Assembly (NCBI GenBank): GCA_043808175.1
Contig: JAZDFE010000030.1
Span: 1-60,875 of the forward strand
Reading direction: 5' to 3'
From: Candidatus Omnitrophota bacterium
GTDB taxonomy: Bacteria > Omnitrophota > Omnitrophia > Omnitrophales > Aquincolibacteriaceae
DNA: 60,875 bases
Shown here: piece after piece, positions 67 through 51,750 of the stretch
Layout: every line of letters begins with the position of its first letter
How positions within the stretch are numbered: position 1 is the first letter of the stretch
Notes under the pieces: generated by a model
Database searches by the model: none
The model's input: the letters and a program-made list of their open reading frames with translations, nothing else
Told to the model about the DNA's origin: nothing
Translations under genes and position numbers: made by a program

Positions 67-150
67 AGTCCCAATACCTATCAATTTCAGAGGATCTGAA
101 ATTGGGGCAATCCTTGTCAACCATTCAGGAAAAGAATGAAAGACAAGGAT
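67..150. repeat. Two-hairpin palindromic element (family A/B)
   Basis: gtcccaat..tcaatttcag-aggat-ctgaaatt..ggggc followed by stem atccttgtc/gacaaggat; close reverse-complement match to the copy ending at 44352. Confidence 0.85.
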
Positions 151-196
151 AGAAGGACGAGCGGGCAGGGACTTTGCGGAGCAAAGGAGCGAGGAC

Positions 197-281
197 AGTC
201 ATGATTCTCATTAATTAAAAATCAAAGGTAATCATGGCAGTCCTTGTCACCATTCTGGGAATGAATGCAAGACAAGGACTG
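197..281. repeat. Two-hairpin palindromic element (family A-like)
   Basis: Stems gtcatgatt/aatcatggc and agtccttgtc/gacaaggact; loops end in aaaggt and begin with accatt, as in the 84-bp element. Confidence 0.75.
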
Positions 282-400
282 GAGGGCGAACGAGGGAATC
301 CACGCCGGGGATTCCTGAGTGGTGACGAGGCTCAAACCTTAAGCCTTCTCTTGGCAAGCACCCGAAGATAAAATGGATGCGTGTCATGCCATAAAAAGGT

Positions 401-429
401 TTGTCGACGGCGCCGATTCTTCCTATAAT
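401..429 (+). promoter_or_regulatory. Putative sigma70 promoter of the cyclase gene (probably leaderless mRNA)
   Basis: TTGTCG-17 bp-TATAAT; ATG follows 5 nt later with no Shine-Dalgarno. Confidence 0.6.
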
Positions 430-434
430 CCCCC

Positions 435-2627
435 ATGCGAAAAATACTTTCTTATCTCATTCCCGCATTGATCCTCTTCGGTGTGCTCGCGCTCCAGTAC
501 AGTTTTCCATCCCAGATCGAATCGTTCCGGGCCAAGGTCTTTGATATTTTTCAAATGATCAAACCGCGCGTTTTTCAAGAGACGCCGGTACGCATCATCG
601 ATATCGATGACGAGAGCCTCGAGAAGATCGGGCAATGGCCCTGGCCGCGAACGATCCTGGCAAAACTTGTCTCGCGCCTCGCCGCGGGCGGCGCTACTGT
701 GATCTCTTTTGACGGGGTCTTTCCGGAATCCGACCGCACTTCCCCGCAGAATATGCTCCCGCTCTGGACGGAAGGCGCGACCAGCGAATTCCTGCGCGCC
801 CAGCTTGAAATGATCCCGGACCATGACACGATATTCGCGAAGGCCATCGCCAAAGCTCCCGTGGTCCTCGCCTTCGGCCTCACGAACGAGCCTCACTCAA
901 AATTACCCGAGTTAAAAACAGGGTTCTTGGAGCACGGCACGAGCAAGGACCGGGCCGTCGATCATATTGGGCCCGTCTTCAAGGGGGCAGTTGTCAATCT
1001 TCTCATTTTGGAAAAAGCCGCGAAAGGGAATGGCTGTTTTAATATGGGCACAGAATGGGATAATATTGTCAGACGCGTCCCGTCGATTTTCCGCCTCAAC
1101 AACGTCCTTTATCCGGCCCTCATCCTCGAAACCATGCGCATCTTCCAGGGCGCTTCGGCTTATAAGATCACACTTGCCGGCGCGACGGGTGAAACTTCCT
1201 TCGGGGAAAAGACAGGCCTCGTGAGCATTAAAACGGGCCTGCTGGAAATCCCCACTGATGCCATGGGCAGGATCTGGCTTTATGACACCGGATACAAAAG
1301 AGAACGTTTCATCCCTGCCTGGAAGGTCCTTTCGGATGACAACCTCCTGAAAGAGATGCGAGAAAAGGTCCTTTTCATCGGCGCAAGCGCGATGGCCATG
1401 AAGGACCTCCGGGCCACGCCCCTCAACCCCCGCGCCTCCGGCGTTGAGGTCCATGCCCAGATCGTGGAGCAAATGTTCCTCGGGGATTTTCTAGAACGGC
1501 CGGATTGGGCCGCAGGACTCGAGTTCACCTATCTGACCTTGCTGGGGATCCTGCTTATTTTGATCCTGCCCAAGGCCGGCGCCATACGCTGCGCCGTCAT
1601 CGCTTTTTTAGCCATCGCCTCGGCGTTCGGGGTTTGTTGGTATGCGTTCGTCCGCTGGCATTTCTTGATCGACCCGGTTTTCCCGTCATTCGCCGTCTTT
1701 GGGATCTATTTGGCGTCATCGTTCCTCAATTTTCTCAGCACCGAACGGGAGCGCGGTCAGATCCGCGGCGCCTTCGGCCGGTACCTTTCTCCCGCGCTCG
1801 TTGAAAGACTTGCCAAGAACCCCGGACAGCTCAAGCTCGGCGGAGAGATACGTCCCATGACGTTCCTCTTCATGGATATCCGCAATTTTACGGGGATCGC
1901 CGAAAATTTCACACCGGAGGAGCTCACTCAGTTCATGAACAGTTTTCTCACGCCGATGACCGATATCATTCTTCAACGCGGCGGCACGATCGACAAATAT
2001 ATGGGCGATTGCATCATGGCTTTCTGGAACGCCCCGTTCGAAGATGAGGACCACGCGCTCCACGCGTGCCAATCGGCCCTTGTAATGCAGGAATTCCTCC
2101 GAGCCACGCTGGGCTTTGAGAATGTCCGCGTCGGGATCGGCATCAATACCGGGAATGCCTGCGTCGGCAACATGGGCTCCGAGCAACGCTTTGATTACAC
2201 GGCCCTCGGCGATGAAGTGAATCTGGCTTCACGGATCGAGGGGCTTTCAAAAAATTATGGCGTCACGGCCGTTGTGGGCCAAAACACCGTCGTCGCAGCG
2301 CCGGGATTCGCCACACTTGAGATCGATCTCATCCGTGTCAAAGGAAAGACGAAACCCGTCAAGATCTTCGCTCTTTTGGGAGACACCGGGTTGGAAAGCC
2401 AGCCGCTTTTCAGAGAAGTGCGCGGGCATTTTGAAAAGATGCTCGCAGCTTACCGGAACCGGCAATGGGATGAAGCAGAAAAAACTCTCGAGAATTGCCG
2501 CCACAACACTCTGCCCGGCATCGACCTTGGCGTGCTTTACGAGCTTTACGTCTCGCGCATTCTTTCCTACAAGATCAATCCCCCGGTCCTTAACTGGGAT
2601 GGCGTCACCACCGCCGGTTCAAAATAA
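435..2627 (+). CDS. CHASE2-domain class III adenylate cyclase
   Basis: IIDIDDESL..GQWPWPR and GVEVHAQ CHASE2 motifs, 3 TM helices, then FMDIRNFT, DKYMGD, GIGINTG, YTALGDEVNLASR (Lys/Thr suggest ATP specificity). Confidence 0.95.
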   Translation: MRKILSYLIPALILFGVLALQYSFPSQIESFRAKVFDIFQMIKPRVFQETPVRIIDIDDESLEKIGQWPWPRTILAKLVSRLAAGGATVISFDGVFPESDRTSPQNMLPLWTEGATSEFLRAQLEMIPDHDTIFAKAIAKAPVVLAFGLTNEPHSKLPELKTGFLEHGTSKDRAVDHIGPVFKGAVVNLLILEKAAKGNGCFNMGTEWDNIVRRVPSIFRLNNVLYPALILETMRIFQGASAYKITLAGATGETSFGEKTGLVSIKTGLLEIPTDAMGRIWLYDTGYKRERFIPAWKVLSDDNLLKEMREKVLFIGASAMAMKDLRATPLNPRASGVEVHAQIVEQMFLGDFLERPDWAAGLEFTYLTLLGILLILILPKAGAIRCAVIAFLAIASAFGVCWYAFVRWHFLIDPVFPSFAVFGIYLASSFLNFLSTERERGQIRGAFGRYLSPALVERLAKNPGQLKLGGEIRPMTFLFMDIRNFTGIAENFTPEELTQFMNSFLTPMTDIILQRGGTIDKYMGDCIMAFWNAPFEDEDHALHACQSALVMQEFLRATLGFENVRVGIGINTGNACVGNMGSEQRFDYTALGDEVNLASRIEGLSKNYGVTAVVGQNTVVAAPGFATLEIDLIRVKGKTKPVKIFALLGDTGLESQPLFREVRGHFEKMLAAYRNRQWDEAEKTLENCRHNTLPGIDLGVLYELYVSRILSYKINPPVLNWDGVTTAGSK

Positions 2628-2669: not shown

Positions 2670-2688
2670 ACATCAAAAACCATGGATC

Positions 2689-3252
2689 CTACGTTTGCTG
2701 CTTTTGGCCTTCGGAAGATTTGTTGCCGCGGGTTGCGGGGGTATCTGCCGCATCGATAGCATTGCCGAGTTCCGCCAGCGCCGGAGCATCGTCCTGAACT
2801 TCCGGCGAAGAAGCCCCCGGATCGCCCTTCACCGTATCCGGACCGCTCCTGTTCGGTGTGTCCTCAGGGTTTTTCTGCGCCACCTTTCCGGACACAGCCC
2901 GGAGAATCCCTTTCACCACGCTGGCCTTGGCCCCGGCATTCCTGGGGTCGTAGATAAATTCATCGACTATGATCGAGCTCAACGGCCCCAGCGTAAAAAA
3001 AGTCTGGTCAAGGAGCTGGATCTGAAGTTGTCCCTCCGCTCCCGTCTCAATCTTGTCCCCCATAAAGATCGGATCCCCGTCCTTCAGAAAATGCGCGGCT
3101 TTTTCCGGAGGCGTCGTCGTCTTGACCTCGCCTTTCACGGATGCCGCAACTCCCGCCTGAACCGGTCCCGTCGTTTCAGCAAATAAATTCCCATGCCGGC
3201 CGGCCGAAACCACGAAAAGAACAACTGCTGAGATCCAAATGAGTTTTTTCAT
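2689..3252 (-). CDS. Exported FecR-domain protein 1 (internally deleted paralogue)
   Basis: Signal peptide MKKLIW; GDKIETGAEGQLQIQLLDQTFFTLGP FecR motif; very similar to the neighbour but lacks the LPxxxIGxRGT half. Confidence 0.85.
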   Translation of the reverse strand: MKKLIWISAVVLFVVSAGRHGNLFAETTGPVQAGVAASVKGEVKTTTPPEKAAHFLKDGDPIFMGDKIETGAEGQLQIQLLDQTFFTLGPLSSIIVDEFIYDPRNAGAKASVVKGILRAVSGKVAQKNPEDTPNRSGPDTVKGDPGASSPEVQDDAPALAELGNAIDAADTPATRGNKSSEGQKQQT

Positions 3253-3366: not shown

Positions 3367-4251
3367 CTAAGAGTAGCTACCCTGATCCTGGGAACTGGTT
3401 TTATGCGTATCGTCCTTTGCGGATTCCTGCGCCGCATTCTGGGCTCCGAGCGTGCTTGTTTGATTCAAGGCATCCACGTTATTGAGAAGATCCATCAGCT
3501 CCTGCGCATCCACTTGTCCCTTTGGCAAAGGGGCGGCGTTTGTATCGACTCCGGTGGTATCGGTTCCGGCGCCGGTGGCTTGCTGGCTCAGAGCTCCGGC
3601 GATCCGGTTAAGGTCCGCTTCCGAGACCTGGAATACAGCCGCAGGGGCGCTATTTGCTCCTTCCACAATCGTGGCATTTCCGGCCTGGTCGATATCGACT
3701 CCCACAACCTCTCCATTCACGATATTGGTGACATAAATACGCCCCGCGCCCACGGGACCGAGCAGGACGATCATGGATCTCTGCCCGTCAATGATCCCGG
3801 CCACATTCGTGCCGCGAAAACCGATGGACCCGGCAGGAAGATCGACCGACATGTTCTCCGGTTTTTTATGCGCCACCTTGCCGGACACAACCCTGAAGAT
3901 CCCTTTCAACATGCTCGCCTTCACCTTGCCGTTATCATTGGCGGGATCATACATGAACTCGTCCACCGCGATCCCGCTTGAAGGACCGAGCGTGAAGACC
4001 GTCTGGTCCAGAAGGAGGATCTGAAGCTGCCCGTCCGCTCCCGTTTCGATCTTGTCACCCATGAATACTTGATCCCCGCTCTTGAGCGGATGAGCGGCCT
4101 TTCCCGGAGGCGTCGTGGCCTTGACCTCGCCTTTCACCGCTGCCGCGACGCCCGCCCGCATCGGTGTTTCCGCTCCGGCAAACACGCTGCCCAATGTCCA
4201 CACTGTGAGAGCGGCAAGAGTCACTATTGTTATCCAGAAATTTTTTTTCAT
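3367..4251 (-). CDS. Exported FecR-domain protein 2
   Basis: Signal peptide; GDKIETG..LLDQTVFTLGP..LPAGSIGFRGT; ends shortly after GAQNAA. Confidence 0.9.
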   Translation of the reverse strand: MKKNFWITIVTLAALTVWTLGSVFAGAETPMRAGVAAAVKGEVKATTPPGKAAHPLKSGDQVFMGDKIETGADGQLQILLLDQTVFTLGPSSGIAVDEFMYDPANDNGKVKASMLKGIFRVVSGKVAHKKPENMSVDLPAGSIGFRGTNVAGIIDGQRSMIVLLGPVGAGRIYVTNIVNGEVVGVDIDQAGNATIVEGANSAPAAVFQVSEADLNRIAGALSQQATGAGTDTTGVDTNAAPLPKGQVDAQELMDLLNNVDALNQTSTLGAQNAAQESAKDDTHKTSSQDQGSYS

Positions 4252-4344: not shown

Positions 4345-5736
4345 TCAGACCAGGCCGGGACTAAGCGTTGCTGAGACTGTTCCACTGCCTGAAGTCGGGT
4401 AAGTACTGCCGCCAGTATTAGTGTAAGTTACGTTCACCACCGCATTCTGGGCGACCACTCCACCGTTATTTGATAATGCGACCGTAAAATCAAAATTCCC
4501 ACCCGAGGAGGTTTCGTGCCAAGAAAGATCTGTCGTGGGTCCACTTCGCCCGGCAAAGGAAGTCCCGCCACCGCCGGCAATAGAAGTACTATCAAAGCGG
4601 GTGCTTTGAGAGATGGAAATATAGGAATTCCCGCTACCGATGGATCCACTAGGACCAAAAACAATATTGCCCTGAACGAACAGAGAACCTCCGCCAGAAT
4701 ATGTCCCGCTATTGGCGTAATGGCCGGATCCTGATGTAGCTTGTAATTGCTCATACGTCGTGGTGCCATTGGGCATAGTGCTGCCGATGTCATTTGCCGC
4801 ATTCTGAGCCCCCAGAATGCTGACATCGTTCATACTGTTGCTGACATTATCAAGCCCGCTTACGAGCGCGACATTATTGCCGGTGACGGCTTTGTCCTCT
4901 CCCGACAGAGCGCCCATGTCCGTGTTGCCTCCGAGACCGCCGCCGCTGTCTCCGCCGCCGCCCTGCTGGCCCCCACCACCGCCTTGGCCACCGCCAAGCC
5001 CCTGAGTCAGGCCGTTGATCTGCGCATCGGAAAGCTGGAACACATCCGAGACCCCGCCGTCCGCGCCGACCTCGACGCCAAATCCCGTGCGATTCACATC
5101 CTGGTGATCCCCTCCCGTTCCGTCGACCGTGAAACTTCCGTTCCGTGCCCCGGCGTCATTATTTTTCCCGGGACCCAGAAGAGCCGTAAGTCCCTGGCCG
5201 TTTGCGCCCACGGATCCGCCGACGATCGTGCCTCGGAATCCGAGGGACGCCGTAGGAAGTTTTACTTTCACGCTGTCCGGATTTTTGGCCGCGATCTTGC
5301 CCGAAACATAGCGGAAAACGCCTTGCGTGATGCTCGCTTTGATCTCGCCGTTATGGCTTTTCGGATCATAAACAAATTTATCAATGGTGATAGTGCTGTT
5401 CGGTCCGATCGTAAAAACAGTCTCGTCCAAAAGAAGGATCTGGAGATGTCCTGCGGCGTCGGTCTTCACCTCGTCTCCCATAAAGATCGGCTGCCCGCTC
5501 TGCGCGATGCGCCCCGCCTGACCGAAGGTCGTAAGCTCTACTTTCCCCCCGGCCGCGGCAACAACACCGACCCGGTCAATGGCAGGAGGAATCACAGTCA
5601 CCGGCACGGGAGAAACAGACGCGGGAGCGGACACGGGAGCAGACGTAGGCACAGACATTTGAGCGGGAACAACGGGGATCGTAGGCACTGAAAATGCGAG
5701 AAACAATGCGAGAAAGAAAACTGAGAATTTTTTCAC
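4345..5736 (-). CDS. Exported FecR-domain protein 3 with Gly-rich linker and beta-rich C-terminal domain
   Basis: GTG start, signal peptide, GDEVKTDAAGHLQILLLDETVFTIGPNS..GFRGT, GAQNAA, then a G/S/T-rich domain. Confidence 0.9.
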   Translation of the reverse strand: MKKFSVFFLALFLAFSVPTIPVVPAQMSVPTSAPVSAPASVSPVPVTVIPPAIDRVGVVAAAGGKVELTTFGQAGRIAQSGQPIFMGDEVKTDAAGHLQILLLDETVFTIGPNSTITIDKFVYDPKSHNGEIKASITQGVFRYVSGKIAAKNPDSVKVKLPTASLGFRGTIVGGSVGANGQGLTALLGPGKNNDAGARNGSFTVDGTGGDHQDVNRTGFGVEVGADGGVSDVFQLSDAQINGLTQGLGGGQGGGGGQQGGGGDSGGGLGGNTDMGALSGEDKAVTGNNVALVSGLDNVSNSMNDVSILGAQNAANDIGSTMPNGTTTYEQLQATSGSGHYANSGTYSGGGSLFVQGNIVFGPSGSIGSGNSYISISQSTRFDSTSIAGGGGTSFAGRSGPTTDLSWHETSSGGNFDFTVALSNNGGVVAQNAVVNVTYTNTGGSTYPTSGSGTVSATLSPGLV

Positions 5737-8012: not shown

Positions 8013-9632
8013 TTAGATCTGAGGAGCGATGACCTCGCCCGTCCCGGTTTCCGCCGATCTTGTATAATCGACAGTGACCTTCGCCTGCGCAGCTATATCT
8101 ACTTGGGTGGATCCATCGGTCGCCGTCTTTAGCACATCTTGAAACTGGACCGTAACTTGATTGAAGACGCCCGTACTGTCAAAAGTGGGAAGGCCCTGTT
8201 GTGTTATTTGCCCACCTGTCCACTGAAAAGTCGCGGGAAGGGAGGGGTTGCTACTGTTAAAAGGTTGGTCGCTCAATAGACAACTGTCATTAAGCGGCGT
8301 CCCCAATGATATTCCGTCGGGAACATGGATCTCAATATGAGACTGGGAACCTATCACCATATTGGAGCCAAAATCAACCTTGATGAGTGCGCTTAAAGTG
8401 CCTTGCAAATCCCCAAAATTAAAATTCCCGCCCACGTGTTGATAAGTCACAACCGGCGCGACACGGGCGAGCATATCACTATTCAAGGTATCTCTGACAG
8501 TTTGGTGAGTAGTCTGATTCGTGGTTTTTTGCGCGGCGTCCTGGGCGGCCATCGTGGTATCTTGCATCAGACCGTTCTGGAAAATCCCCATCATATTGAC
8601 CTGATTCGTCATTTGAAAACCCGCAAACGTTTGCGCACCGGATGCTTGTCCTGCGTTGAAACCCGCGCCAAAAACACTCGTGGTCATCATCGGCGCCTTA
8701 ATCGGACCGGGGGACGCCGGACCTGAGCTTGTTGCAGGCGCTCCAGGCATGGTCCCCGATGCCGGACTGACCGGTGGCTGCGCCCCGGAAGGACCTTGAT
8801 CCTCAACTCTCCCGGTAGGCGGCGCGCCTTGAGCATTCTCGCCCCCGGCAGGAACCGGACCTCGTCCCTGCGCAGGCAAAAGCGATTCGCCCAAATGCTG
8901 GACCTGGACCTCCGGGACCATGAACACGCCCGAAAGACCTCCGGCCTGATCGACGCTCACGCCAAACCCGGTGCGATTGACATGCTCCTGCTGGCCGGAA
9001 TTCCCGCCGGTACCGCTCATAACAAAACTTCCGATGGTCGCACCCGTTTCATTTTTGGAGCCGGGGCCCAAAAGCATCGCCATCGAACGGGTCGCGGAGA
9101 CCTCGCCCGCCACAATCGTTCCTCGGATCCCGATCGTCGCTGTCGGCAGCTTGATCGAAACATTTTCGGGTTTATTGGCCGCGATCTTTCCCGAGACATA
9201 CCGGAAAACCCCTTTGGTGATACTGGCCTCGACTTTCCCCACATGGGTCCCGGGTTCATAAATGAACTTATCGATGGTGATGGCGCTATTAGGCCCGATC
9301 GTGAATACGGTCTCATCCAAAAGCAGGATCTGAAGATGACCCGCTGCGTCGGTCTTCACCTCGTCGCCGATAAAGATCTCCTCGCCGCTCTGGACGACGC
9401 GCCCGGCCGCGCCGGGGGTCATCACTTCGACCTTACCCTGGATCGCCGCCACAACGCCGATCCTGGAAAGACCCTCTAGGGAAGACACCACTCCGGGAGC
9501 CGCAATCGGCATCTGAGCAAAAACCGCGGCATTGGAAAAAATAAAGATGGAAATGAAAAGTGACGTGAGGATCTTTGTCAAAAGGGCATTCTTTCTATGA
9601 GATATCAAGCTTATTTCCACATACCTCTTCAT
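8013..9632 (-). CDS. Exported FecR-domain protein 4 with Pro-rich linker and beta-rich C-terminal domain
   Basis: FecR core nearly the same as paralogue 3, LPTATIGIRGT, AAQDAA, distinct C-terminus; start uncertain. Confidence 0.9.
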   Translation of the reverse strand: MKRYVEISLISHRKNALLTKILTSLFISIFIFSNAAVFAQMPIAAPGVVSSLEGLSRIGVVAAIQGKVEVMTPGAAGRVVQSGEEIFIGDEVKTDAAGHLQILLLDETVFTIGPNSAITIDKFIYEPGTHVGKVEASITKGVFRYVSGKIAANKPENVSIKLPTATIGIRGTIVAGEVSATRSMAMLLGPGSKNETGATIGSFVMSGTGGNSGQQEHVNRTGFGVSVDQAGGLSGVFMVPEVQVQHLGESLLPAQGRGPVPAGGENAQGAPPTGRVEDQGPSGAQPPVSPASGTMPGAPATSSGPASPGPIKAPMMTTSVFGAGFNAGQASGAQTFAGFQMTNQVNMMGIFQNGLMQDTTMAAQDAAQKTTNQTTHQTVRDTLNSDMLARVAPVVTYQHVGGNFNFGDLQGTLSALIKVDFGSNMVIGSQSHIEIHVPDGISLGTPLNDSCLLSDQPFNSSNPSLPATFQWTGGQITQQGLPTFDSTGVFNQVTVQFQDVLKTATDGSTQVDIAAQAKVTVDYTRSAETGTGEVIAPQI

Positions 9633-11417: not shown

Positions 11418-11507
11418 GTCATGTCCAATTCTCCATCAGAAAATTCAAAGGTTAATGGGACTAGCCCTGGCAACCTTCTATCAAAAAAAAATGGAGGCTA
11501 GGGCATG
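11418..11507 (+). repeat. 84-bp palindromic element (family A) at the helicase start
   Basis: Ungapped match to copies at 14014-14103 and 26120-26209; gtcatg/ggcatg 84 bp apart. Confidence 0.95.
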
Positions 11508-13472
11508 TCATTTCAATTGGACCCGTTCCAGCTCCAAGCCATCGAATGGATCGAAAAAGAACATTCCCTTCTTGTCTCCGCACCCACGGGCTCAGGCAAA
11601 ACGCTCATCGCCGAAAAAGCCGTCGAAAAAGCTCTCTCACGCGGCGAGCAAGTCATTTACACCGCCCCGATCAAGGCCCTGAGTAATCAGAAATTCCGGG
11701 ATTTCCAGGAACATTTTGGCAAAGAGACGGTCGGTATCCTCACCGGAGACGTTTCCATCAACCCGGGAGCGCCGCTCCTCATCATGACGACCGAGATCTA
11801 CCGGAATTCCCTTTTCGAGAACGCGGAACGCATCCAAAAGATCGGCTGGGTTATTTTTGACGAGGTCCATTATCTGGATGACGCCCAACGCGGCACGGTC
11901 TGGGAAGAAGCTCTCCTTTTCACGCCCCCGGAGATCCGCATCCTTGCTCTGAGCGCCACGATCCCGAACGTCCAGGAACTCGCGGACTGGATCCGTCAGA
12001 TCCACCAACGTCCCATCGCCGTGATCGAAGAGACGCATCGCCCCGTTCCGCTCCATTTTCTGTTCCAATGTCAAGGCAAGATCCTTACGAACACAAAATC
12101 GCTTAGAAAAGAAGGCTATCTTCAGCGCGACAATTGGCAGCTTTCCATGCGGGAAAGGCGCCGCGGGTTCCAATCTCCCCGCGCGCGACCGAATCGCCTC
12201 AATGACATCCTGAAGCATCTCATCAATGGGGATCAACTCCCCGCCATCTATTTTGCGTTCGGACGGAAACGCACAGCCATGCTTGCCTGGGAAGTCGCGC
12301 ACTTTGATCTTTTGAGGGAGGCAGAACGTCGCGAAGTCCGGACGCTTTATGACGAACTCCTGGCGCGCTACGACCTGGCCGGTGATAAGACCGCCGAAGA
12401 GATCCGCCCGCTCATCGAACAAGGTATTGCCTACCATCACGCGGGCATGCTTCCGACGCTCAAAGAGGTCGTCGAAAGACTTTTCACGAGCCGCCTGATC
12501 AAGCTCATCTTCACCACTGAAACCTTCGCGCTGGGGATCAACATGCCGGCGCGCACCGTGGTCTTCGACGAGCTTGAAAAATTCTACGGCACGGGGTTCA
12601 AACCGCTCACCACACGCGATTTTTTTCAAATGGCCGGACGCGCGGGACGGCGCGGCATGGACCCGGAAGGTTTCGTTTACTGCCGCATTCATCCGAACGA
12701 CATCCCCTTTCCCGAAGTGGAACGCATTCTTTACGGGAAACCGGAGCCTGTGCGCAGTCAGTTGAACGCCACGTACGCAACGCTCCTGAATCTTTACAGA
12801 ACGCTCGGGCACAAACTTCTCGAGATCTATCCTCGCTCCTTCCATTTTTTCCAGTCCTCCAAACGGAAACGCGACGAAGGGTTCGATCTTCTGAAGAACA
12901 AGCTCGCGCTCCTGCAGGAGATGGGCTACATCACCGACCAGGGGACGACAGAAACTCAGGGTATGCTCACGGTCAAAGGGGAATTCGCGGCCTCGATCTT
13001 CGGTTTTGAGCTGCTTCTTACGGAAATGTACACCGATGGCGCGTTGGAGCAGTTGGACGAGGCGAAATTGAACGTCTTTTTGGCGGGATTGATCTTTGAG
13101 CCGAGAAAGAACGACGAGGCCCCGCGGCTCGGCAAGGACCATGGCGAATTACTGAAAATGACCCAGCATTATCACCGGATGGTCTTCAAATGGGAATCCA
13201 ATTTCCGCGTCACGCCCCACACCAAGCCTCCCTATTTTCATCTCGCTCGCCCCATCGAGGCATGGACGCAAGGTAAGGATTTCGAAAAGATCTGTCAGCT
13301 GACCTCGGAAGACGAGGGAAGCCTAGTGCGTTACATACGGATGGTGATCCAACTCTTGCGGGAGATCGCCAATGCACCGCACGCCTCCGAAGGCCTCAAG
13401 GCGAAGGCAAGGCGCGCGAGAACTATGATCGACCGGGACGTGGTGGACGCAGAAAAGCAACTGCGGATCTAA
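11505..13472 (+). CDS. Ski2/HelY-like DEAD/DEAH-box helicase
   Basis: APTGSGKT, PIKALSNQK, DEVH, LSAT, HHAG, TETFALGINMPA, QMAGRAGRRG, DSHCT-like C-terminus. Confidence 0.95.
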   Translation: MSFQLDPFQLQAIEWIEKEHSLLVSAPTGSGKTLIAEKAVEKALSRGEQVIYTAPIKALSNQKFRDFQEHFGKETVGILTGDVSINPGAPLLIMTTEIYRNSLFENAERIQKIGWVIFDEVHYLDDAQRGTVWEEALLFTPPEIRILALSATIPNVQELADWIRQIHQRPIAVIEETHRPVPLHFLFQCQGKILTNTKSLRKEGYLQRDNWQLSMRERRRGFQSPRARPNRLNDILKHLINGDQLPAIYFAFGRKRTAMLAWEVAHFDLLREAERREVRTLYDELLARYDLAGDKTAEEIRPLIEQGIAYHHAGMLPTLKEVVERLFTSRLIKLIFTTETFALGINMPARTVVFDELEKFYGTGFKPLTTRDFFQMAGRAGRRGMDPEGFVYCRIHPNDIPFPEVERILYGKPEPVRSQLNATYATLLNLYRTLGHKLLEIYPRSFHFFQSSKRKRDEGFDLLKNKLALLQEMGYITDQGTTETQGMLTVKGEFAASIFGFELLLTEMYTDGALEQLDEAKLNVFLAGLIFEPRKNDEAPRLGKDHGELLKMTQHYHRMVFKWESNFRVTPHTKPPYFHLARPIEAWTQGKDFEKICQLTSEDEGSLVRYIRMVIQLLREIANAPHASEGLKAKARRARTMIDRDVVDAEKQLRI

Positions 13473-13500: not shown

Positions 13501-16500
13501 CTATTCTCCCAACTCTTGTTTCTCTGTCAGTCCTGCTTTTTCATCCTCTTGGCGGATCTTCTCAAGAATGATCGGTAACTTCCATTTTTCAATACGGCAT
13601 ACGGTGTCGTAAGGGCAGAAGCTTTCACAATCCCGGGGCCGCACCGGGATCTCGGATGACAAGATCTCCTTTGTGAACTTTTGGACGAACGCCACTGCCC
13701 GGTCCAAAGTCTTTTGGAACACTTCATCCGGAAGCTGCGACCGGGAGGAAAATTCTTTTTCAAATAACTGGGCGCCCCCTTCACTGTAAAACCCACTCCG
13801 TTTGTGATCACGAATGGAATAGATCTCGGCGCCGAGAGGCGTGAGGCCCAGGTGCTTTTTTGCGGCTAAAAGATAAAGCGGCAACTGGAGCGCGGTCCCG
13901 AGTTCGAGGCTCGCGGCCTTGAATCTCGCGGAACGTTTGTAGTCGATCACGACCGCGAACTTCTTTCCGTCATCCGTATCGATCCGATCCACCCGCCCCC
14001 GCAACTTGATCTTCTTGCCCTGGCATCTATTTTCTTCTGTCCGAAGGTTGCCAGGACTAGTCCGATTAACTTTCGAATTTTCTGATGGAGAATTGGACTT
14101 GCCTTCGCCTTCGATCTCGAGAGCCGAGTGGTCATTTTCTCCGAAGTCACCAAAGGAATATTCCACGTGGCACGGCTTGAAAGACGCATTTTCCAGCCGC
14201 TCCGCTTCATAACTTATAAAATCCACGAGCATCTCGAAGAGTTCGCGGCGATCGAGAGCTTCCTCGTAGGGTTCCGTCCACAGCATCGGATGCCGCTTGA
14301 AGCCTTCTTCTATCTCACGCCGGACGAATTCCTCGAGCTTCTCTTTCGGATCTTTTTTCCCGCAGGGATCAAAATACTGCTGGAGAACGTGATGCAGAAT
14401 GCTTCCTTTTTGCATCGCGCGGATATCCTCGCCTGTATCTTTCAACTTGAGGATCTTGTCGGAAAAATAACGAAAAGGACATTTGGCATAAGTCTCAAGC
14501 CGCGTAGGGCTCGTTTCCGAGATCTCGAAATATCCTCCTTTGAGGATCTTCTCATCCAGGATCTTCGCCTCGATGGGTCTCACGGCAGAAAGAAGACGTT
14601 CGCGGCTTTGAGGATCTCCCGAAAGTTGAGCTAAAGCCTTGCGAAGACCGGCCTCCTGCCCCCTTGCGTCACGAAGAGCGCCGACCACCGAAGCCTCCAA
14701 CTCACGATGCGTGATCGCCTCATCGACCTCGGGAAAAGGCCTCGAAAGGTCCTGACGTATCACGGGCACCTGCCCCCCAAAAAGCTCTTTTACTTCTTCA
14801 AGATAGAATGATGGCAGGGATTCTTTTCCCTCAAAATCAAGATGCGGGTAGCTTAAAAAGAGCTTCTCCTTCGCGCGCGTGATGGCGACATAGAAAAAAA
14901 ACCTCTCGATATTCTGACGGGGCAAACACTCCGCGAGAGGATGTTCCATGCCGCCATTCATCAATTTCCGTTCCCAGTCTGAAAGTAACGGATCTTCGCG
15001 GATCTGCATGGGAAAAACTTTTTCCAGGAGGCCCGCCACGAACACGACCCTGTATTCTTTCTGCCGGGCGAGCGAGACGTCATAGACCTGCACGCGGTTC
15101 TTGTCGCGCTCGTGGAGCGAATAAACGTCCAATTCGACGAGGCCGAGAAAATGATCGGCAAAACTTTCGAAAGAGATCTCCGAAACCCTGCTTTTCAGGA
15201 AATAGCCCCGCATCTCATCCAGAAGAGCCTCGAACCTTTTGACACAGGCTGCGTCCCGGCGCGTGAACGGCGTGTAGCGATCGCTGATCTCCAGGATCCC
15301 GAAAGTATCGTACGCCGCGCGTTTCAAGATCCGGATATGATCTTCCGCGGTCTTCGCCATCCGGAACCGGTCCTCGAGCTCCATGAGAGCTTTAAGCGTT
15401 TCGGTCTTTTTTTGATTGAACCCGGAGAGGCTTCCGGGCTCTCCGCATTTCCAGTCCCCAAGCCAGGCCTCGCGCGTAAGCGCCACGCCTTCCCGGAATG
15501 ACCGCTGTTCGAACTCCGCGAGCCACTCTTTGTCTTTTGCGATATCTTTTCCAAAACGACGCGTGTAGCCGGATTTCAGGAAAGCGAAAACATCCTCCCG
15601 CTTCCAGGCATTACGGAAAACCGAAAGAAGCGACGCGACCGCGGCGATCCAGGATGAGAATTTCAAACGGTCGCGTTCATGGATCTCGGCAGGGATCCCG
15701 TAACGCAAAAAGACCGAAGCGATGACCGGCGCATAATGCCGGATTTGACGGAACAGGACCGCAAAATCGCTGTAGCGGTAATCCCCGGTCGCGTAGAGCT
15801 TGTGGATCTGGCGGGCGATCAATTCGATCTCGCCCTCGGTCCCGATGGCGTCAAGCATAACGATATCCTGCCCCGGTTCCGGTACTGGTCCTGCAGATTT
15901 TTGAGAAAAAATATTTTTTTGAAGGAAAAGAAGCGGCGATTTCCCGGTGCGCCAGGAATGAGGTTTCATCGTCTGCGCTTTGAACCCGAGCTTCTCGAGG
16001 TCCTGCTCTGTCCGGCTCACGGCCTCAAAAGCATCTTCTTTCTCATTGCTATCTTCTTCCGTAAGAGTGATCGTGATGTCCTCCGTAATGGCGGAAAGCT
16101 CCCGGAGATATTCCAATTGTAAATTCGAAAAATCAAAAAATCCGTCAATCCAGATCCCTTTGAATTGCATACCCGGAAGATCCGCCTTCTTTTTCCTCTC
16201 CCGGAAGATGCGGAGAGCATCCTGGCTGTCCCGAAGCCCTTGCTTTTCGAGGCGCGCCTCGTATTGCTCATAGAAATCGGCGAGCGCTTCGTACTTCGCG
16301 GCATAGGTCGGTTCGAAACCCTTGAGCGCGTTCATGCGTTCGCGAAAAATTTCCGGAGGAACGCAGGACTCTTTGAGCTCGGTCATGAACTGCACCATCA
16401 GTCCCGGAAAACCCGGTTGCTCGCACACTCCCTCGAAATAATCCCATGCATTCTCGCGGACAAGGTCCCGGACAATCATCGTGCGGGTCAGACTGGAAGC

Positions 16501-25855: not shown

Positions 25856-26021
25856 TACTGGCACTGCGTTACTATTGATTTTAGGGATTCGTAGTGCCGT
25901 ACCGCCCAAATTTTATATTCTTTTCTGAAATGGTAATTTGGGCGGCCCCAATCTCAGCTTCGCTGAGACTGATTGGTATTGGGACCGTTAACCCTTAAAA
26001 TTAAATAGAGAACGGTACTGG
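25856..26021. repeat. Four-hairpin composite array
   Basis: Stems ggcactgcg/cgtagtgcc, ccgcccaaatt/aatttgggcgg, cccaat/attggg, accgtt/aacggt; flanked by direct tactgg. Confidence 0.85.
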
Positions 26022-26098: not shown

Positions 26099-27376
26099 AT
26101 GAAAAAAATTATACTAAAAGGCAAGCCCAATTCTCCATTAAAAGATTTAAATGTTAATTGGACTAGTCCTGGCAATCTTCTGTTTAAAAAAAATAGATGC
26201 CAGGGCAAAGCCGTTGTCGGGCAATCCGGCGGATGCACGGCGGTCATTAATCAAAGTCTCGCGGGCGTCGTGGAAGCGGCACGGACCTGCCGCGTGATCA
26301 CGGGGATCCTCGGGTCGCGGAATGGCATCGAAGGCATTCTGAATGGTTCTTTTGTGGATCTCAAGGCAAAGCCATCAAAATTGATTCTCCGAATCGCCCA
26401 ATCCCCTTCCGCCGCGCTGGGTTCTTCCCGTTACAAACTCAAACCCGGAGATGACCGGAAGATCGTTGCGAGCCTCCGGAGACATCATATCCGCTATGTA
26501 TTCCTGATCGGAGGGAATGATACGGCAAACACTAGCCTCCAGATCGCAAGAGCCGCAGAAAAAGATCATTATGAGATCCGGGTTATCCATATCCCGAAGA
26601 CCATTGATAACGACTTGGTTGAGACTGACCACTGCCCGGGGTACGGTTCTGTCGCGCGCTTCGCGGCCGTCACGACGCAGGAGGCGGCGCTGGACACCCA
26701 AGCCATGAAAAATGTCGATCCTGTGAAGATCATCGAGCTTATGGGAAGAAATTCCGGCTGGATCGTCGCGGCCTCGGCCCTCTTGAAAAAAGCACCGGAG
26801 GATGCTCCCCATCTCCTGCTCATTCCCGAAGTCCCGTTCGACGAGACGTCGTTTATTAAAAGGACCGAGGCCATTCTGCAATCGGTGGGTTATTGCATTA
26901 TCGTTATTTCGGAAACGATCCGCGACTATCAGGGAAACCGCATCGGCCACAAAATCGAGGGGGTCACGTCAGACCCGTTTGGTCACAAATATGTCGAAGG
27001 CACGGCGGCGCGTCTTGCCACGATCCTCGAAAAAAATCTGGGGGTCCGCGCCCGTTTCGACAAGCCCGGAACAATCCAGCGCATGTCGATGGCTTACGTC
27101 TCAGAGACCGATCAAAAAGAAGCCTATCAGGCGGGCGTTCACGCGGTCAAGTGGGCCCTCCGGGGAATGACCCGGGTCATGGTGGGATTTGAAAGAAAAC
27201 CAGGAAAGAATTACGCTATGGCTTACAAGCCGGTACCGCTCGAAAAGATCCCGAATCATGAGCGCGACCTCTTTGCGGGATTTTTTGACAAGAAAAAAGG
27301 GATGGTCACGCCGGCCTTCGTGGAATACGCCCTGCCGCTTCTCGGCAAAGGCCTCCCCCATTTCGCCTCGCTCTAG
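26099..27376 (+). CDS. pfp: Pyrophosphate-dependent phosphofructokinase
   Basis: GQSGG, GGND, PKTIDND (Asp and Lys signature of PPi type), MGR. Confidence 0.9.
   Translation: MKKIILKGKPNSPLKDLNVNWTSPGNLLFKKNRCQGKAVVGQSGGCTAVINQSLAGVVEAARTCRVITGILGSRNGIEGILNGSFVDLKAKPSKLILRIAQSPSAALGSSRYKLKPGDDRKIVASLRRHHIRYVFLIGGNDTANTSLQIARAAEKDHYEIRVIHIPKTIDNDLVETDHCPGYGSVARFAAVTTQEAALDTQAMKNVDPVKIIELMGRNSGWIVAASALLKKAPEDAPHLLLIPEVPFDETSFIKRTEAILQSVGYCIIVISETIRDYQGNRIGHKIEGVTSDPFGHKYVEGTAARLATILEKNLGVRARFDKPGTIQRMSMAYVSETDQKEAYQAGVHAVKWALRGMTRVMVGFERKPGKNYAMAYKPVPLEKIPNHERDLFAGFFDKKKGMVTPAFVEYALPLLGKGLPHFASL
26120..26209 (+). repeat. 84-bp palindromic element (family A) in frame within pfp
   Basis: ggcaag/ggcaaa 84 bp apart; encodes PNSPLKDLNVNWTSPGNLLFKKNRCQGK. 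Confidence 0.95.
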
Positions 27377-27469
27377 AGTGCCGGAATTCTTTACGCCGGC
27401 ACTGGTTCTCATAAAAATTCATTGCAAGCGAGTGCCGCATTGAACAACCCGTGAAAATTTATAGGAAGT

Positions 27470-32891: not shown

Positions 32892-33263
32892 CTATTTTGG
32901 GCCGAGGATCTCCGAGATAGCCTTGAACACCTGATCCACGAACGGTTTCTGGACCACTCGCTCAGCGCCGGCCTCTCGGGCCAAAATATCCAGCTTCATT
33001 TCTTGCACGGCAGTAAAAAACACTACGGGAATATGCGCGGTCTCTTTCATCGCCTTGAGGCGACGACAAGTTTCATACCCGTCCATCCCAGGCATGGCAA
33101 TATCCAACAAAATAAGATCGGGCTGCCACATCTTTGCTTTGTCAAGACCGCTTAGGCCGTCCGTTGCGATCTCGACAAGAAATCCGCGCGATGCGACACG
33201 GACTTTCAAGAGCGTCACCACCACAGGTTCATCATCCACGATCAGGATCTTCTGGGGTGTCAT
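32892..33263 (-). CDS. Single-domain response regulator
   Basis: ILIVDDE, LLDIAMPGMDG, FTA, KP. Confidence 0.95.
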   Translation of the reverse strand: MTPQKILIVDDEPVVVTLLKVRVASRGFLVEIATDGLSGLDKAKMWQPDLILLDIAMPGMDGYETCRRLKAMKETAHIPVVFFTAVQEMKLDILAREAGAERVVQKPFVDQVFKAISEILGPK

Positions 33264-33296: not shown

Positions 33297-33427
33297 TGGG
33301 ACAGTCCAAACTTTGCATTTTTTTCCAAAATGGTAGTTTGGACAGCCCCAATTTCAACTCCGTTGAAATTGATAGGTATTGGGACAGTTCAAGTCGCCAT
33401 TGATAAAAATAAAACAAGACTTAGGCG
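33297..33427. repeat. Three-hairpin composite array
   Basis: gtccaaact/agtttggac, then ccccaatttcaa..ttgaaattgataggtattgggac, then aagtc/gactt. Confidence 0.8.
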
Positions 33428-33493
33428 CCATGCTTCTTTTTAGGTTCTGTTCCAAAGCTCCTCTAGTAGGTTTCGGAATCCTTCCCCGTAAAC

Positions 33494-34209: not shown

Positions 34210-34331
34210 ATCCTGACTTTTATTTTCTTCTCCTTAAGGGTGGTCGGGACAGCCTTGGCTTTTATTTTTTTCTAAATGGTGGCCAGGGCAGCCCCAATTT
34301 TCACGCGATGGAAATTGACGAGGATCGGGAC
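34210..34331. repeat. Three-hairpin composite array
   Basis: tcctgac/gtcggga, gccttggc/gccagggc, ccccaatttt..gaaattgacgaggatcgggac. Confidence 0.75.
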
Positions 34332-34396
34332 TCAATGTCATCCGCATTGTCCTCCACTTATTTTTCAAGTATACTTCGCAAATAGGGAGAATTTTT

Positions 34397-35515: not shown

Positions 35516-36409
35516 ATGAAACGCTCCAGACTTTATCTCTCCGGCATTCAATTGATGTCTCAAAGCGCGATTTGTTTTTCCATCATGGCGCTTTGCGTCA
35601 AATATGCGAGTGTGTCACTCTCTCCGTTCCAAATCGTTTTTTTCCGGAGTTTTTTCGGCATGCTGATAGTGCTCCCCTTTATTTGGCGCAAAAAGGTATC
35701 GCTCTGGGGTGAAGAACGGCTCAAACTGACGTCCCGCGGCATCTGTGGCTTCGGCGCTCTGATCCTTCACTTTTACACCATCGCCAAACTTGATCTCGGG
35801 CTTGCAATCATGCTCAATTATACGGCGCCCATTTTTACGGTGATCTTCTCGGTCTTTTTCTTGAAGGAGCGCCCGAGCCTCTCTCTTTGCTTTCTGATCG
35901 TTTTGTCTTTCACCGGAGTGATCCTGCTGAATACGCGTTCCGGCGCGGCGTGGAGCCCGGCAGTATGGCTAGCGCTATTTTCCTCGGTCTTCGCCGCATT
36001 CGCTTATCTGTCGATCCGAACGATCCGACAACGAGAGTCACCCTACACCGTGGTTTTTTATTTCACGCTGATCTCGACCGTGGGTTCGCTTTTTTTCCTG
36101 AAAGGATGGAAGTGGCCAGACCCTGCATCCTGGGGACTAATCGCCGGGGTGGTGATCTTTTCTTTCTACGGGCAGGTCTGGATGACCACCGCTCTGAGAC
36201 GCGCACCCGCCTACCTGGTCACGCCATTCTCTTACCTTCATCCGGTGCTCTCGTTCGCGTATGGATGGCTGCTATGGGGGGATGCCATCACCTGGATCAC
36301 CGCGGCCGGCATTTTTCTGATCGTGGGAAGCGGCTCGCTTATTTCCTATTTTGAAACAAAACGCGAAAAAAAACTTCCCGCCTCCCTCTCGAGTGAATCC
36401 TGCCTTTAG
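35516..36409 (+). CDS. DMT/EamA family transporter
   Basis: About 10 TM helices, IVFFRS, FLKER. Confidence 0.9.
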   Translation: MKRSRLYLSGIQLMSQSAICFSIMALCVKYASVSLSPFQIVFFRSFFGMLIVLPFIWRKKVSLWGEERLKLTSRGICGFGALILHFYTIAKLDLGLAIMLNYTAPIFTVIFSVFFLKERPSLSLCFLIVLSFTGVILLNTRSGAAWSPAVWLALFSSVFAAFAYLSIRTIRQRESPYTVVFYFTLISTVGSLFFLKGWKWPDPASWGLIAGVVIFSFYGQVWMTTALRRAPAYLVTPFSYLHPVLSFAYGWLLWGDAITWITAAGIFLIVGSGSLISYFETKREKKLPASLSSESCL

Positions 36410-36503
36410 CATAGCTTCGAGATTGAAATTGCGGATAGTGCAATTTCAATTTGCTTTATGTGCTGTACCGTTAAACCCATAAAATCAAATAGGGAACGGT
36501 ACT
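36408..36503. repeat. Two-hairpin array between convergent genes (possible terminator)
   Basis: attgaaattgc/gcaatttcaat, then gtaccgtt-aaacccataaaatcaaataggg-aacggtac matching the module at 25983-26018. Confidence 0.75.
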
Positions 36504-44189: not shown

Positions 44190-44353
44190 GACTATCCTTG
44201 TCTAAGGTTTTTTTCTTAAATGGTCGACATGCTGATTTTTGTTCAAAATGAAGGTCAATCAGTATAGTTTCAACCACCTTTAAGTTTTTTATTGGGTTGG
44301 GACAAGGATTGCCCCAATTTCAGATTCTCTGAAATTGATAAGAATTGGGACTA
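44190..44353. repeat. Nested palindromic elements
   Basis: Host stem atccttgtc/gacaaggat split by a 75-bp two-hairpin insert bounded by gacatg and gacaag. Confidence 0.8.
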
Positions 44354-44358
44354 AAGCC

Positions 44359-48583: not shown

Positions 48584-48597
48584 TCCTGTTTTCAGGA

Positions 48598-49548: not shown

Positions 49549-49550
49549 GT

Positions 49551-50147: not shown

Positions 50148-50262
50148 TTTTGTCCCCCATTTTTGTTGAGGGGTGGATTATATCCGAACGCGGAATCTTT
50201 GAGAAATAATCTTTTGTTGCATCTCACTTCAAACGATTAGCAATCCCAATGCGAGAAACACG

Positions 50263-51084
50263 CTACGCAAAATGATTCACGGGGCCCATGCCATGCCCGA
50301 GGTCGGGACTTGTGCGGATGGCGCGCGTGATGAACTTTTTGGCGGTCGTGATCGCAGAAAAAAGGTCCTTTCCCTTGGCAAGCTCGGCGGTAATGGCAGC
50401 GGAATACGTGCAGCCGGTCCCATGCGTATGCCGCGTCCTGATCCGAGGAGCTTTGAATATGTGGACCAGACCTTGTTGCCACAAAAGATCCATGGCTTCC
50501 CCTTGAAGATGGCCGCCCTTGACAAGCACTGCTTGAGGACCGAACCCGGCGATAATTCGCGCGGCTTTTTCCATGGACTTCGGATCACGAACCTTGATCC
50601 CGCTCAAAACTCCGGCTTCATCAAGGTTGGGCGTGACCAAAGCGGCGAAAGGCATTAGTTCTTTGATAAAAGCATGAACGGCGCTTCGCCTGAAAAGCGG
50701 CACACCGTGCTTGCTCACCATGACCGGATCCACCACGAGAGGGAACCGGAATTTCCTGGCCGCCCTTGCGACCGCCCGGAGAACCTTTTCATCCCCCAGT
50801 GCTCCTGTCTTGGCCGCTTGAGGCGGGATGTCCGCAAGTACGGCTTCGAGTTGTCGGATCACCTGGGTGGGTTTCATGACGTAAACAGCCTGGATACCGC
50901 GTGTGTTCTGAGCTGTGAGAAGCGTGATTACCGCCATCCCATAGACCTTATGCTGATGGAAGGTCTTGAGATCGGCCTGAATGCCCGCCCCGCCCGAAGG
51001 ATCGGAACCGGCGATGGAAAGCGCTCGCGGGATCCCTTGTGGTGCGTTCATTTTATCTCTGGGGAATCGCGATGCGGTAGACAT
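50263..51084 (-). CDS. thiD: HMP/HMP-P kinase
   Basis: IAGSDPSGGAGIQADLK, VDPVM, KGGH, HGTGCT; start may be 51051. Confidence 0.95.
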   Translation of the reverse strand: MSTASRFPRDKMNAPQGIPRALSIAGSDPSGGAGIQADLKTFHQHKVYGMAVITLLTAQNTRGIQAVYVMKPTQVIRQLEAVLADIPPQAAKTGALGDEKVLRAVARAARKFRFPLVVDPVMVSKHGVPLFRRSAVHAFIKELMPFAALVTPNLDEAGVLSGIKVRDPKSMEKAARIIAGFGPQAVLVKGGHLQGEAMDLLWQQGLVHIFKAPRIRTRHTHGTGCTYSAAITAELAKGKDLFSAITTAKKFITRAIRTSPDLGHGMGPVNHFA

Positions 51085-51118
51085 TCTCGATGGAAGTCAT
51101 CAATTCCATGGGAATGCT

Positions 51119-51619
51119 CTACCCGAGGACTTGTTTGAAAAACTCGACGAACATTTCGGGTGTAACACCGGTCGAAAATTGTACGACTTCGCCAGGCTGG
51201 GGCGGGTGAAGGAAAAAAGACGGAAATCCGCGAATCCTGTATTGAAACGCGATATCATCCTCGCGCTTCTCGGATTCAGGATTGATATTGACCTTGATCT
51301 TGTCCTTCAACATATCCCTGACAAGGGGTGACGACAACACCCCTTTTTCGAACTTACGACAATATGGGCACCAACCGACGCTCATATAAACGACCATCGG
51401 TTTATTGGTCCGCTTGTATTCTTCGACCGCCTGATCGTACCCGGAAGCACCCTGATACCAACCCTCGGACCACTGGCCCGTAGCCGGGGCCCCGACGGGC
51501 GTTGAAACGGATGGCACATACGATGCCTGAGGGTCCTCGGCGTAGCATCCCGGCCCCATGAGTAAAAAAGATGACAAAAAAAGTGGAACGATTTTTCTAG
51601 AATTCACAAAGCCTCCCAA
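51119..51619 (-). CDS. Exported thioredoxin-family protein
   Basis: Signal-like N-terminus, WCPYC, GFP. Confidence 0.85.
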   Translation of the reverse strand: MGGFVNSRKIVPLFLSSFLLMGPGCYAEDPQASYVPSVSTPVGAPATGQWSEGWYQGASGYDQAVEEYKRTNKPMVVYMSVGWCPYCRKFEKGVLSSPLVRDMLKDKIKVNINPESEKREDDIAFQYRIRGFPSFFLHPPQPGEVVQFSTGVTPEMFVEFFKQVLG

Positions 51620-51672
51620 ATCATTTTTTGTATTTTAACATGGAGTCTTTCGGAAAAGACGTTTCTTTTCAA

Positions 51673-51750
51673 GTCCCAACCCACTCACCCATTCAAGCAA
51701 GATTGGGACGGCATGTAAACCCCCTTAAAATTAAAAGCACTGCGGTGTCG
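51673..51750. repeat. Degenerate two-hairpin element
   Basis: gtcccaa/ttgggac, then loop aaacccccttaaaattaaaa like the module at 25990. Confidence 0.55.

Follow-up and report, generated by a model that had tools for sequence, protein, structure and literature searches.

What are the arrays of short hairpins that recur along a contig of a Candidatus Omnitrophota bacterium, and how did they come to be there? The question is raised by contig JAZDFE010000030.1 of assembly GCA_043808175.1, the whole of which (60,875 nt) was analysed and is here called the window. To our knowledge, Omnitrophota are uncultured and their mobile DNA has barely been described; literature searches, with supplements outside their scope, returned no published description of these hairpin repeats in Omnitrophota. 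A first-pass annotation of the window had listed eight places with hairpin modules, all of which have been confirmed in the sequence, together with the stems that it quoted (tccaaact/agtttgga, ccgcccaaatt/aatttgggcgg, gccttggc/gccagggc and atccttgtc/gacaaggat), the T-rich loop ending in AA(T)GGT and the GGAC-AG or GGAC-TAG junctions. From the comparison of copies within and between genomes, the arrays very probably belong to a family of mobile DNA elements that are small, non-autonomous and assembled from hairpin modules of ~40 nt. One to three modules move together as a unit, mostly a module A followed by a module B (A+B, ~85 nt). Such units insert at sites without relation to one another, into the loops or stems of other modules and beside module ends, which gives rise to head-to-tail and nested arrays.

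The source genome, G000, comprises 1.44 Mb in 42 contigs (52.5% G+C, 77% complete), the window being its contig C30. The other G labels denote related Omnitrophota genomes, L labels individual loci and C labels contigs.

Hairpin modules and their distribution

Module A has a stem of variable sequence (7-11 bp) and a T-rich loop that ends in AATGGT and contains an inner mini-stem, CATTTT/AAAATG. Module B (CCCCAAT...ATTGGGAC) has the form CCCCAATTTCA-n7-TGAAATTGATAGGTATTGGGAC, with a second subtype given by AATCTCAGC/GCTTCGATT, and module C places a variable stem (GTACCGTT / AACGGTAC in the window copy) around the loop AACCCTTAAAATTAAATAGAG. The module C family counts 10 loop matches, several with covarying stems, and the stems ACCGTT/AACGGT, ACTGTT/AACAGT, CCGCA/TGCGG, GCTGCG/CGCAGC and CCCAATC/GATTGGG have been found around one loop. 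Modules D, E and F are additional hairpin types, each module being ~40 nt long; module F (CATGATT...AATCATG) occurs at 15 loci in G000, with 0 for the control. Finally, an 84-nt two-hairpin element has the reverse-complement layout of the A+B pair, with a mean column identity of 71% that is strongest in the A half, and the resemblance first noted between 34252-34331 and the reverse complement of this coding element is thereby borne out.

Two side observations concern the inventory of modules. Both arms of module F carry Shine-Dalgarno sequences of the AGGAG type and an ATG, and the module often adjoins gene starts, as at window 33261-33263, the start of a response-regulator gene. In addition, a spacer hairpin at window 27397-27478 (GTGCCGGAATTC...CGGCAC region) has five self-BLAST matches elsewhere in G000 and a weak match (E=0.08) to R1, the covariance model described below, and may be another module type.

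Folded as DNA hairpins on either strand, single modules have z scores between -3.0 and -6.0, and those of the complete A+B unit at 33297-33388 are -5.4 and -6.9 on the two strands; folding is weak in a diverged A copy (34251-34291, z -1.6) and in the coding copy of the 84-nt element (z -1.1 / -0.5). In the alignment of all 68 units found in G000 (MAFFT, no rows removed), 89.4% of the stem cells are paired, compared with 75.6+-0.6 in shuffles, and 229 cells carry double changes, compared with 85+-9 (0/500 shuffles in both cases). The covariation score is 0.424, against 0.184 after shuffling and 0.03-0.10 if the 3' partners are shifted along, and both sides vary in 14 of the 20 stem pairs. Moreover, a compensatory change has been observed at one orthologous site, which reads TGTC/GACA in G000 and TGCC/GGCA in G004.

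A strict regular expression for module B finds 61 places in G000, and a pattern that tolerates up to three substitutions finds 68, in 59 of which an A hairpin with 7 bp or more lies directly upstream on the same strand. With at most two mismatches the pattern has 65 occurrences in G000; of 18 further genomes of the genus, 17 contain it, with 11-91 occurrences each, and of 22 sampled genomes of other genera none does. Reversed, as a control, it gives 0 in all 40 genomes searched. R1 was built from all 68 A+B units of G000 and used to score the best ~29 candidates per genome in 150 Omnitrophota genomes, where full-length units were matched in 28 (19 of the 46 genomes of the family, 11 of the 12 of the genus) and the matches outside the unit-bearing genera were single and weak. 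G012, which belongs to the same genus and is 97% complete, has no units, and three other genera of the family have them (at least 15 in G062; at least 27 in G069; at least 25, 5 and 12 in G071, G121 and G154, respectively). The distribution is patchy within one Omnitrophota family. The expectation in the first-pass annotation that further copies and covariation would be found genome-wide has therefore been confirmed, with 68 units in G000 and strong covariation of their stems.

According to crude open reading frame (ORF) calls, on which the gene orientations below also rest, 50 of the 68 units are intergenic and 15 lie within ORFs, so that the initial description of arrays across intergenic regions applies to most units, while leaving out the modules within genes. 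Among the intergenic units, 34 lie in spacers between co-directional genes (22 in the same orientation as the neighbouring genes and 12 in the opposite one), 6 between convergent and 10 between divergent genes. A separate observation is that 49 of the 68 units are on the + strand of their contig, with a + majority on 18 contigs and a - majority on 3; contig orientation should be arbitrary, and the excess follows neither GC skew nor the direction of genes.

Filled and empty sites

The mobility of the units is seen in about twelve pairs of filled and empty sites, as well as in several nested copies. At the N-terminus of phosphofructokinase (PFK), 84 nt are absent in L012, L013, L014, L015, L016, L019 and L020 and present in L018 and L017, the last of which has an additional nested copy. 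At the stop codon of EamA, G004 shows the empty form cctcTAAGC (cctcTAAGCTTAC) and the window an E+C unit of 96 nt that is flanked by TA left and right, the stop codon being TAA in the former and TAG in the latter. The spacer between ADH and EamA is empty in G011 (cgtcTGtggtc) and in G008 holds an A+B unit of the TG type, bordered by TG at either end, and the spacer between Nth and ADH, occupied in the window by the array 34212-34334, is empty in G004, G010 and G018 and has another insertion point in G003 and G015. The site of the unit at 33301-33388 is without module in G017 and G010 and has only A in G004; the AddB site is filled in G000 and G004 and empty in G018, G011, G016, G015, G003 and G001; and the site at the ATG of the helicase gene is filled in G017 and G013 and empty in G016 and G005. 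Upstream of the AI-2E gene, the empty site reads TA in G008 and G013 and TG in G001, and the filled site carries a TA-type unit (TA/TTG/TA for its left, middle and right junctions) in G000, G004 and G017 and a TG-type unit (TG/CTG/TG) in G015 and G002.

Units have also been inserted into one another. The A loop of the unit 44193-44353 contains a further nested insert of ~76 nt that is absent in G004, where the unit is ~90% identical, which indicates that the family was active after the split of the G000 and G004 species. CG-type units are nested in B loops (after CCCCAAT[TC]TC) and in a reverse-oriented A loop at AC-CG-TT, and the CG-type unit 25903-25987 sits in the 5' arm of a module C at GTAC-CG-TT with CG on both sides; in all these positions (B loops, A loop and C stem) the nested CG-type units are at a pre-existing CCG. 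Furthermore, G000 has paralogous copies of a host repeat, H, in which three sites are filled in some copies and empty in others (the empty forms lie at C14 and C2), and the A+F unit 195-282 is present only in the window copy of H.

Within genes, the 84-nt element is in frame in PFK and in an AddB-like protein, where it adds 28 residues inside the PD-(D/E)XK domain, and the helicase copy adjoins the start codon with AT on both sides, by which the ATG is rebuilt. A+B units split the UvrB interaction domain near residue 214 of UvrB, occupy residues ~655-685 of PriA and lie near the N-terminus of an RnfC-like protein. The coding strand corresponds to the reverse-complement orientation of the unit in every in-gene case, and the copies, of ~28 residues each, are found only in the one open orientation and frame. 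The in-frame insertion in PFK, AddB, UvrB and PriA recalls the Rickettsia palindromic elements (RPE), small palindromes that lie in frame in unrelated housekeeping genes and add a peptide to the product (PMC10969869). The likeness is one of behaviour only; RPE measure ~150 bp against 84-89 nt for the elements described here, which belong to another phylum and have a modular, stackable architecture.

Border rule and candidate movers

The A+B unit has the layout C-p-q-[A]-q'-r-G-[B: CCCCAAT...ATTGGGA]-C-p-q. The left and the right pq are identical in 51 of the 68 units; in 10,000 shuffles the mean is 14.9 (sd 3.1) and the maximum 27. The 68 units are distributed over the types CG/CGG/CG (20), TA/TTG/TA (14), TG/CTG/TG (5), AG/CAG/AG (5), GG/CCG/GG (4) and CA/TGG/CA (1), the remainder being mixed; the same types recur among 35 parsed units of other genomes. 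The base q' is paired with the right-hand q in 66 of the 68 units and with the left-hand q in 63, and r and p are paired in 35, in that they pair if p is C or G, while r equals p (T.T or A.A) if p is T or A. Where the flanks are unequal, it is more often the right-hand one that agrees with the middle (10 vs 4). Empty sites have pq once, with C before it at every site examined except one, and filled sites have it on both sides. Together with the left pq, the middle strand q'rG can close hairpin A; together with the right pq, it can close hairpin B. It is complementary to C-pq on either border, as a guide would be, but also as a simple extension of the stems would be.

How the units might be mobilised can be framed as follows. 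The hairpin, as single-stranded DNA (ssDNA) or as a cruciform, would be recognised by an enzyme; one pq would be part of the element and the target would be chosen to match it, either by DNA-DNA pairing, as in the peel-and-paste process of the IS200/IS605 insertion sequences (IS), or through a 2-nt crossover core. Some recombinases need an identical 2-nt core, and a pq that belongs to the element and is matched by the target would follow the logic of IS200/IS605 and equally that of such recombinases. In IS608, a member of the former group, the cleavage sites are recognised by DNA guide sequences at the foot of subterminal hairpins that are complementary to the borders, non-canonical pairs are tolerated, and the target resembles the element's own end (PMC3201880). 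The units resemble IS608 in these traits, the non-canonical positions being T.T and A.A in the units, and differ in that no tnpA or tnpB lies in or near them, in that a single guide-like trinucleotide stands between two adjacent hairpins and can extend either stem, and in that no replication-strand bias was detected. The full proposal, that of a new miniature single-strand (or core-dinucleotide) element in which one 3-nt internal guide between two hairpins sets both the end and the target, served by an enzyme outside the tested Y1/HUH, DDE, serine and DEDD families, is advanced tentatively and appears to us rather unlikely; such an enzyme would explain why the near-complete, unit-rich G008 (95% complete, 46 B copies) and G069 (95% complete, 20 contigs) share none of these families. 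Alternatively, the same borders may have arisen from a plain duplication of 2-3 bp, after which closed stems were favoured by selection.

Several observations weigh against the view of the arrays as a mobile family with matched borders. No transposase could be linked to the units: G008 has no match for TnpB, DDE_3, DDE_Tnp_1, rve, Resolvase, IS110 or DDE_Tnp_4, and G069 none for Y1, rve or DDE_Tnp_4. The flanks are unequal in 17 of the 68 units, and the array 34212-34334 has TA on its left, TC on its right and CAG junctions inside. The 84-nt subfamily combines one interior with the flanks AA, AA and AT, so that a plain 2-3-nt target duplication fits it better than a guided target. The covariation cells come from related copies grouped in subfamilies, and the independent events are fewer than the cells. 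Finally, the units show no orientation bias with respect to local GC skew (35/68; the skew is dominated by the coding strand and the contigs are short) or to the local gene majority (32/68), and these counts thus lend no support to the strand bias expected of lagging-strand ssDNA insertion.

The first-pass annotation had linked the arrays to HUH transposases and had named a gene of the RAYT type (REP-associated tyrosine transposase, a Y1 HUH enzyme) flanked by the modules as something to look for. On this reading, repeats of the repetitive extragenic palindromic (REP) or bacterial interspersed mosaic element (BIME) type would be moved by a RAYT on ssDNA hairpins. REP, BIME and REPIN sequences are short palindromic repeats that are regarded as non-autonomous and as being processed in the form of folded ssDNA (PMC2817692, PMC8266576, PMC3333891), and the units resemble them as high-copy short palindromes, 68 in 1.44 Mb and mostly extragenic, with composite arrays and conserved structure. 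An internal sequence complementary to both border trinucleotides, a unit type that matches the target and the precedent of IS608 would also suit a RAYT, and Y1_Tnp (PF01797) is found in 20 of 24 relatives, in 9 of 10 genera and in 11 of 14 other genus genomes searched, G012 having neither units nor Y1. However, Y1_Tnp was not found in the unit-rich G069, G005 or G014, and it is present in the unit-free G048, G052, G055, G067 and G111 of the family; no single Y1 subfamily is common to the genus genomes. The only Y1-like ORF of G000 (429 residues) has RIHLLIEP at the position of the HUH motif, lacks the second His and is not accompanied by repeats. At L022, L025 and L026 the 1.5 kb around the Y1 genes is free of modules, and a module within ~2 kb was seen at 4-5 of 16 Y1 loci, near chance expectation. 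The architecture differs as well: the modules are ~40 nt long with long conserved AT-rich loops, their borders are C-NN / GGGAC-NN and lack at the hairpin foot the conserved GTAG or CGTC tag found at one end of REP palindromes (PMC3733652), they also lie in frame in genes, and they are arranged head to tail in one orientation and a fixed A-B order, unlike the REPs that alternate in orientation within BIMEs (PMC2817692). What stands of the earlier reading as a BIME/REPIN-like superfamily is therefore a modular repeat of the general REP/BIME/MITE kind, kept as a hairpin; the RAYT link appears improbable, with the RAYT-like genes of the genus bracketed by their own species-specific, GC-rich palindromes of ~20 nt, e.g., GTACACACCCGGTGTGTAC, and not by the modules.

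RAYT-like Y1 genes with an intact HUH motif are found at L068, L069, L070, L074 and L075 (G001, G013, G009, G007 and G003, respectively), and to judge by these sequences the genus has classical REP/RAYT systems alongside the hairpin modules. Downstream of the RAYT-like genes of three species (L070, L074, L075) there is a conserved stretch of ~80 nt (gcatgcgagacttacgggtctcgactcacctg...cacgaacctctttttttt), which may be a small RNA with a terminator.

Classical MITEs (miniature transposable elements with inverted repeats) derived from a DDE insertion sequence with a 2-3-bp target duplication (IS30- or IS5-like), the hairpin representing two terminal inverted repeats (TIRs), are a further and quite improbable explanation. 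Short direct repeats do flank the units and are single in empty sites, the flanks of the 84-nt subfamily depend on the target, and arrays could arise by insertion beside existing ends. Yet no insertion sequence with matching ends was found: long self-matches in G000 include no high-identity multi-copy IS with module-like ends, its only rve IS has unrelated TIRs of 45 nt, rve is missing in G008 and G069, and DDE_Tnp_1, DDE_3 and DDE_Tnp_4 are missing in G008. Moreover, a plain duplication leaves unexplained the flank-interior pairing of 66 of the 68 units. By the criteria for MITEs, each module is itself palindromic, and the 2-3-nt repeats that flank the units are paired to the interior, because of which the flank repeat may belong to the element. 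In comparison with the modular, MITE-like BOX elements of pneumococci and Correia elements of Neisseria, the flanking dinucleotide varies (CG, TA, TG, AG, GG, CA, AA, AT) and pairs with a position inside the unit, and no parent IS was found.

Other candidates for the mover have been rejected. IS110 is present in only 3 of 19 genus genomes, has other ends and, in its G000 copy, targets the host repeat H; large serine recombinases occur in 17 of 19, including the unit-free G012, but not in G008 and G014; TnpB was found in none of five genomes searched; and DDE_3, DDE_Tnp_1, rve and DDE_Tnp_4 are not common to the unit-rich genomes. Y2_Tnp gave no match, but the control genomes gave none either, so that this negative carries no weight. 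The Ssn nucleases, whose small GIY-YIG gene is flanked by NTS-like consensus repeats (PMC11893778), were set aside as well: the small GIY-YIG genes have their own SRM-type hairpins or adjoin tRNA genes, and a B module is nearby at 1 of the 7 loci L147-L153. Such genes at L157 (G008:C6:48800-51200) and L153 (G009:C10) are flanked by CGTCATTC...GAAT hairpins that fit NTS/SRM repeats, and those at L152 and L158 lie directly upstream of a tRNA-like gene, the first ~16 bases of the tRNA being repeated on the other side of the gene. In G009, two B modules of identical sequence that lie 1.8 kb from each other, considered as possible transposon ends, belong instead to a tandem gene duplication, and no pair of the solitary GTCCCAAT / ATTGGGAC sites of G000 brackets a gene.

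A structured-RNA family (terminators, mRNA stabilisers, protein-binding or processing sites) selected at the RNA level, with copy number as a by-product, is very improbable: its stems would covary around conserved loops, as observed, the 34 units between co-directional genes would be transcribed, and mismatched stem cells include more C.A (60) than G.T (33), C.A being G.U on the opposite strand, with T.C/C.T mismatches in the stems of the second B subtype that become tandem G.A there, but these mismatches are inherited within subfamilies and the wobble excess lies mostly in one column, the orientation relative to genes is mixed, copies lie within coding frames, the sites are polymorphic between species, the hairpins are equally stable on both DNA strands, and Rfam gave 0 matches over the window at the gathering score.

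Features of the window and significance

Scanned with filters off, R1 matches the window at ten places with E<1e-3, among them six of the eight places listed at first (E<=1e-11). The remaining two, 36408-36503 (E+C) and 51673-51750, are not R1 matches; they consist of other module types related to A+B in layout only.

Table 1. Hairpin units and associated repeats of the window, with the evidence for each; hyphens within junction sequences mark the unit borders.
Feature	Position	Strand	Evidence
Host repeat H copy (~300 nt) with two inserted hairpin units	1..397	-	alignment of 8 copies
TA-type A+B unit (B 68-106, A 108-150) in H at ...cttC-TA-GCG	65..153	-	R1 E=7.7e-26
A+F unit: F (CATGATT...AATCATG; 199-238) and A (GTCCTTGTC/GACAAGGAC)	195..282	-	R1 E=1.2e-11
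84-nt element at ATG of DEAD/DSHCT helicase gene	11420..11508	-	R1 E=8.8e-5
84-nt element in AddB-like nuclease gene (gene on - strand)	14014..14101	+	R1 E=1.2e-4
Module D hairpin (GGCACT...AGTGCC)	25860..25898	+	sequence reading alone, no separate fold
Module C hairpin (GTACCGTT / AACGGTAC, loop AACCCTTAAAATTAAATAGAG), 5' arm interrupted	25899..26018	+	intact copy at 36465-36502
CG-type A+B unit nested in module C	25903..25987	+	R1 E=3.2e-24 (match 25901-25988)
84-nt element near PFK N-terminus	26121..26209	-	R1 E=6.6e-8
AG-type A+B unit, AG / CAG / AG junctions	33301..33388	+	R1 E=3.9e-26
Hairpin TCAAGTC...GACTTAG after the AG-type unit	33389..33431	+	R1 33342-33429(-) E=3.2e-6
Array A, A, B inserted at ...c-TA-AATGTCATCC	34212..34334	+	R1 34249-34334(+), E<=1e-11
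E+C two-hairpin unit in EamA stop codon	36409..36504	+	96-nt insert vs G004; folds
TA-type A+B unit upstream of AI-2E transporter gene	44193..44353	+	R1 44273-44354(+), E<=1e-11
Degenerate B-like hairpin (GTCCCAAC...ATTGGGAC) and C-like loop	51673..51750	.	R1 E=0.51

The host repeat H exists in at least 8 copies and has a long-range 13-bp stem (GGCGGGAAGTGTG / CACACTTCCCGCC) around a site used by IS110. An IS110-family element (360-residue transposase, C5:1335-253) lies within an H copy with CT on both sides (...gagccacgCT-...-CT aaggaggcc), and the loci of IS110 and H comprise window 1-66 and 282-397 as well as C5:1-1522 and C23:5337-5709 of G000. The window copy of H is cut at base 1, which is the exact position of IS110 in another H copy; because the window starts precisely at this insertion point, its left end was probably broken by another IS110 copy. 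The window also holds four diverged paralogous gene segments on the - strand (2859-3186, 3797-4182, 5216-5573 and 9106-9463; 61-83% identity), a local gene family without relation to the hairpins.

New here are the rule by which border and interior nucleotides pair, the agreement of unit type with target, seen at orthologous as well as nested sites, the patchy, family-level range, and the negative results for RAYT, Ssn and six other transposase families. The repeats break assemblies and mislead gene calling in metagenome-assembled genomes of Omnitrophota. The family shapes much of the spacer DNA examined in G000 and several related genera; its units remodel the starts and stops of genes, where an ATG has been rebuilt and a TAA turned into a TAG, and add 28-residue loops to the repair and replication proteins UvrB, PriA and AddB. 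The matched border and interior nucleotides provide a testable handle on target choice by tiny hairpin repeats, as for REP-like elements generally, and, if the mover is no known transposase, the family would point to a new activity in the handling of DNA, one whose target rule is short and encoded in the DNA itself.

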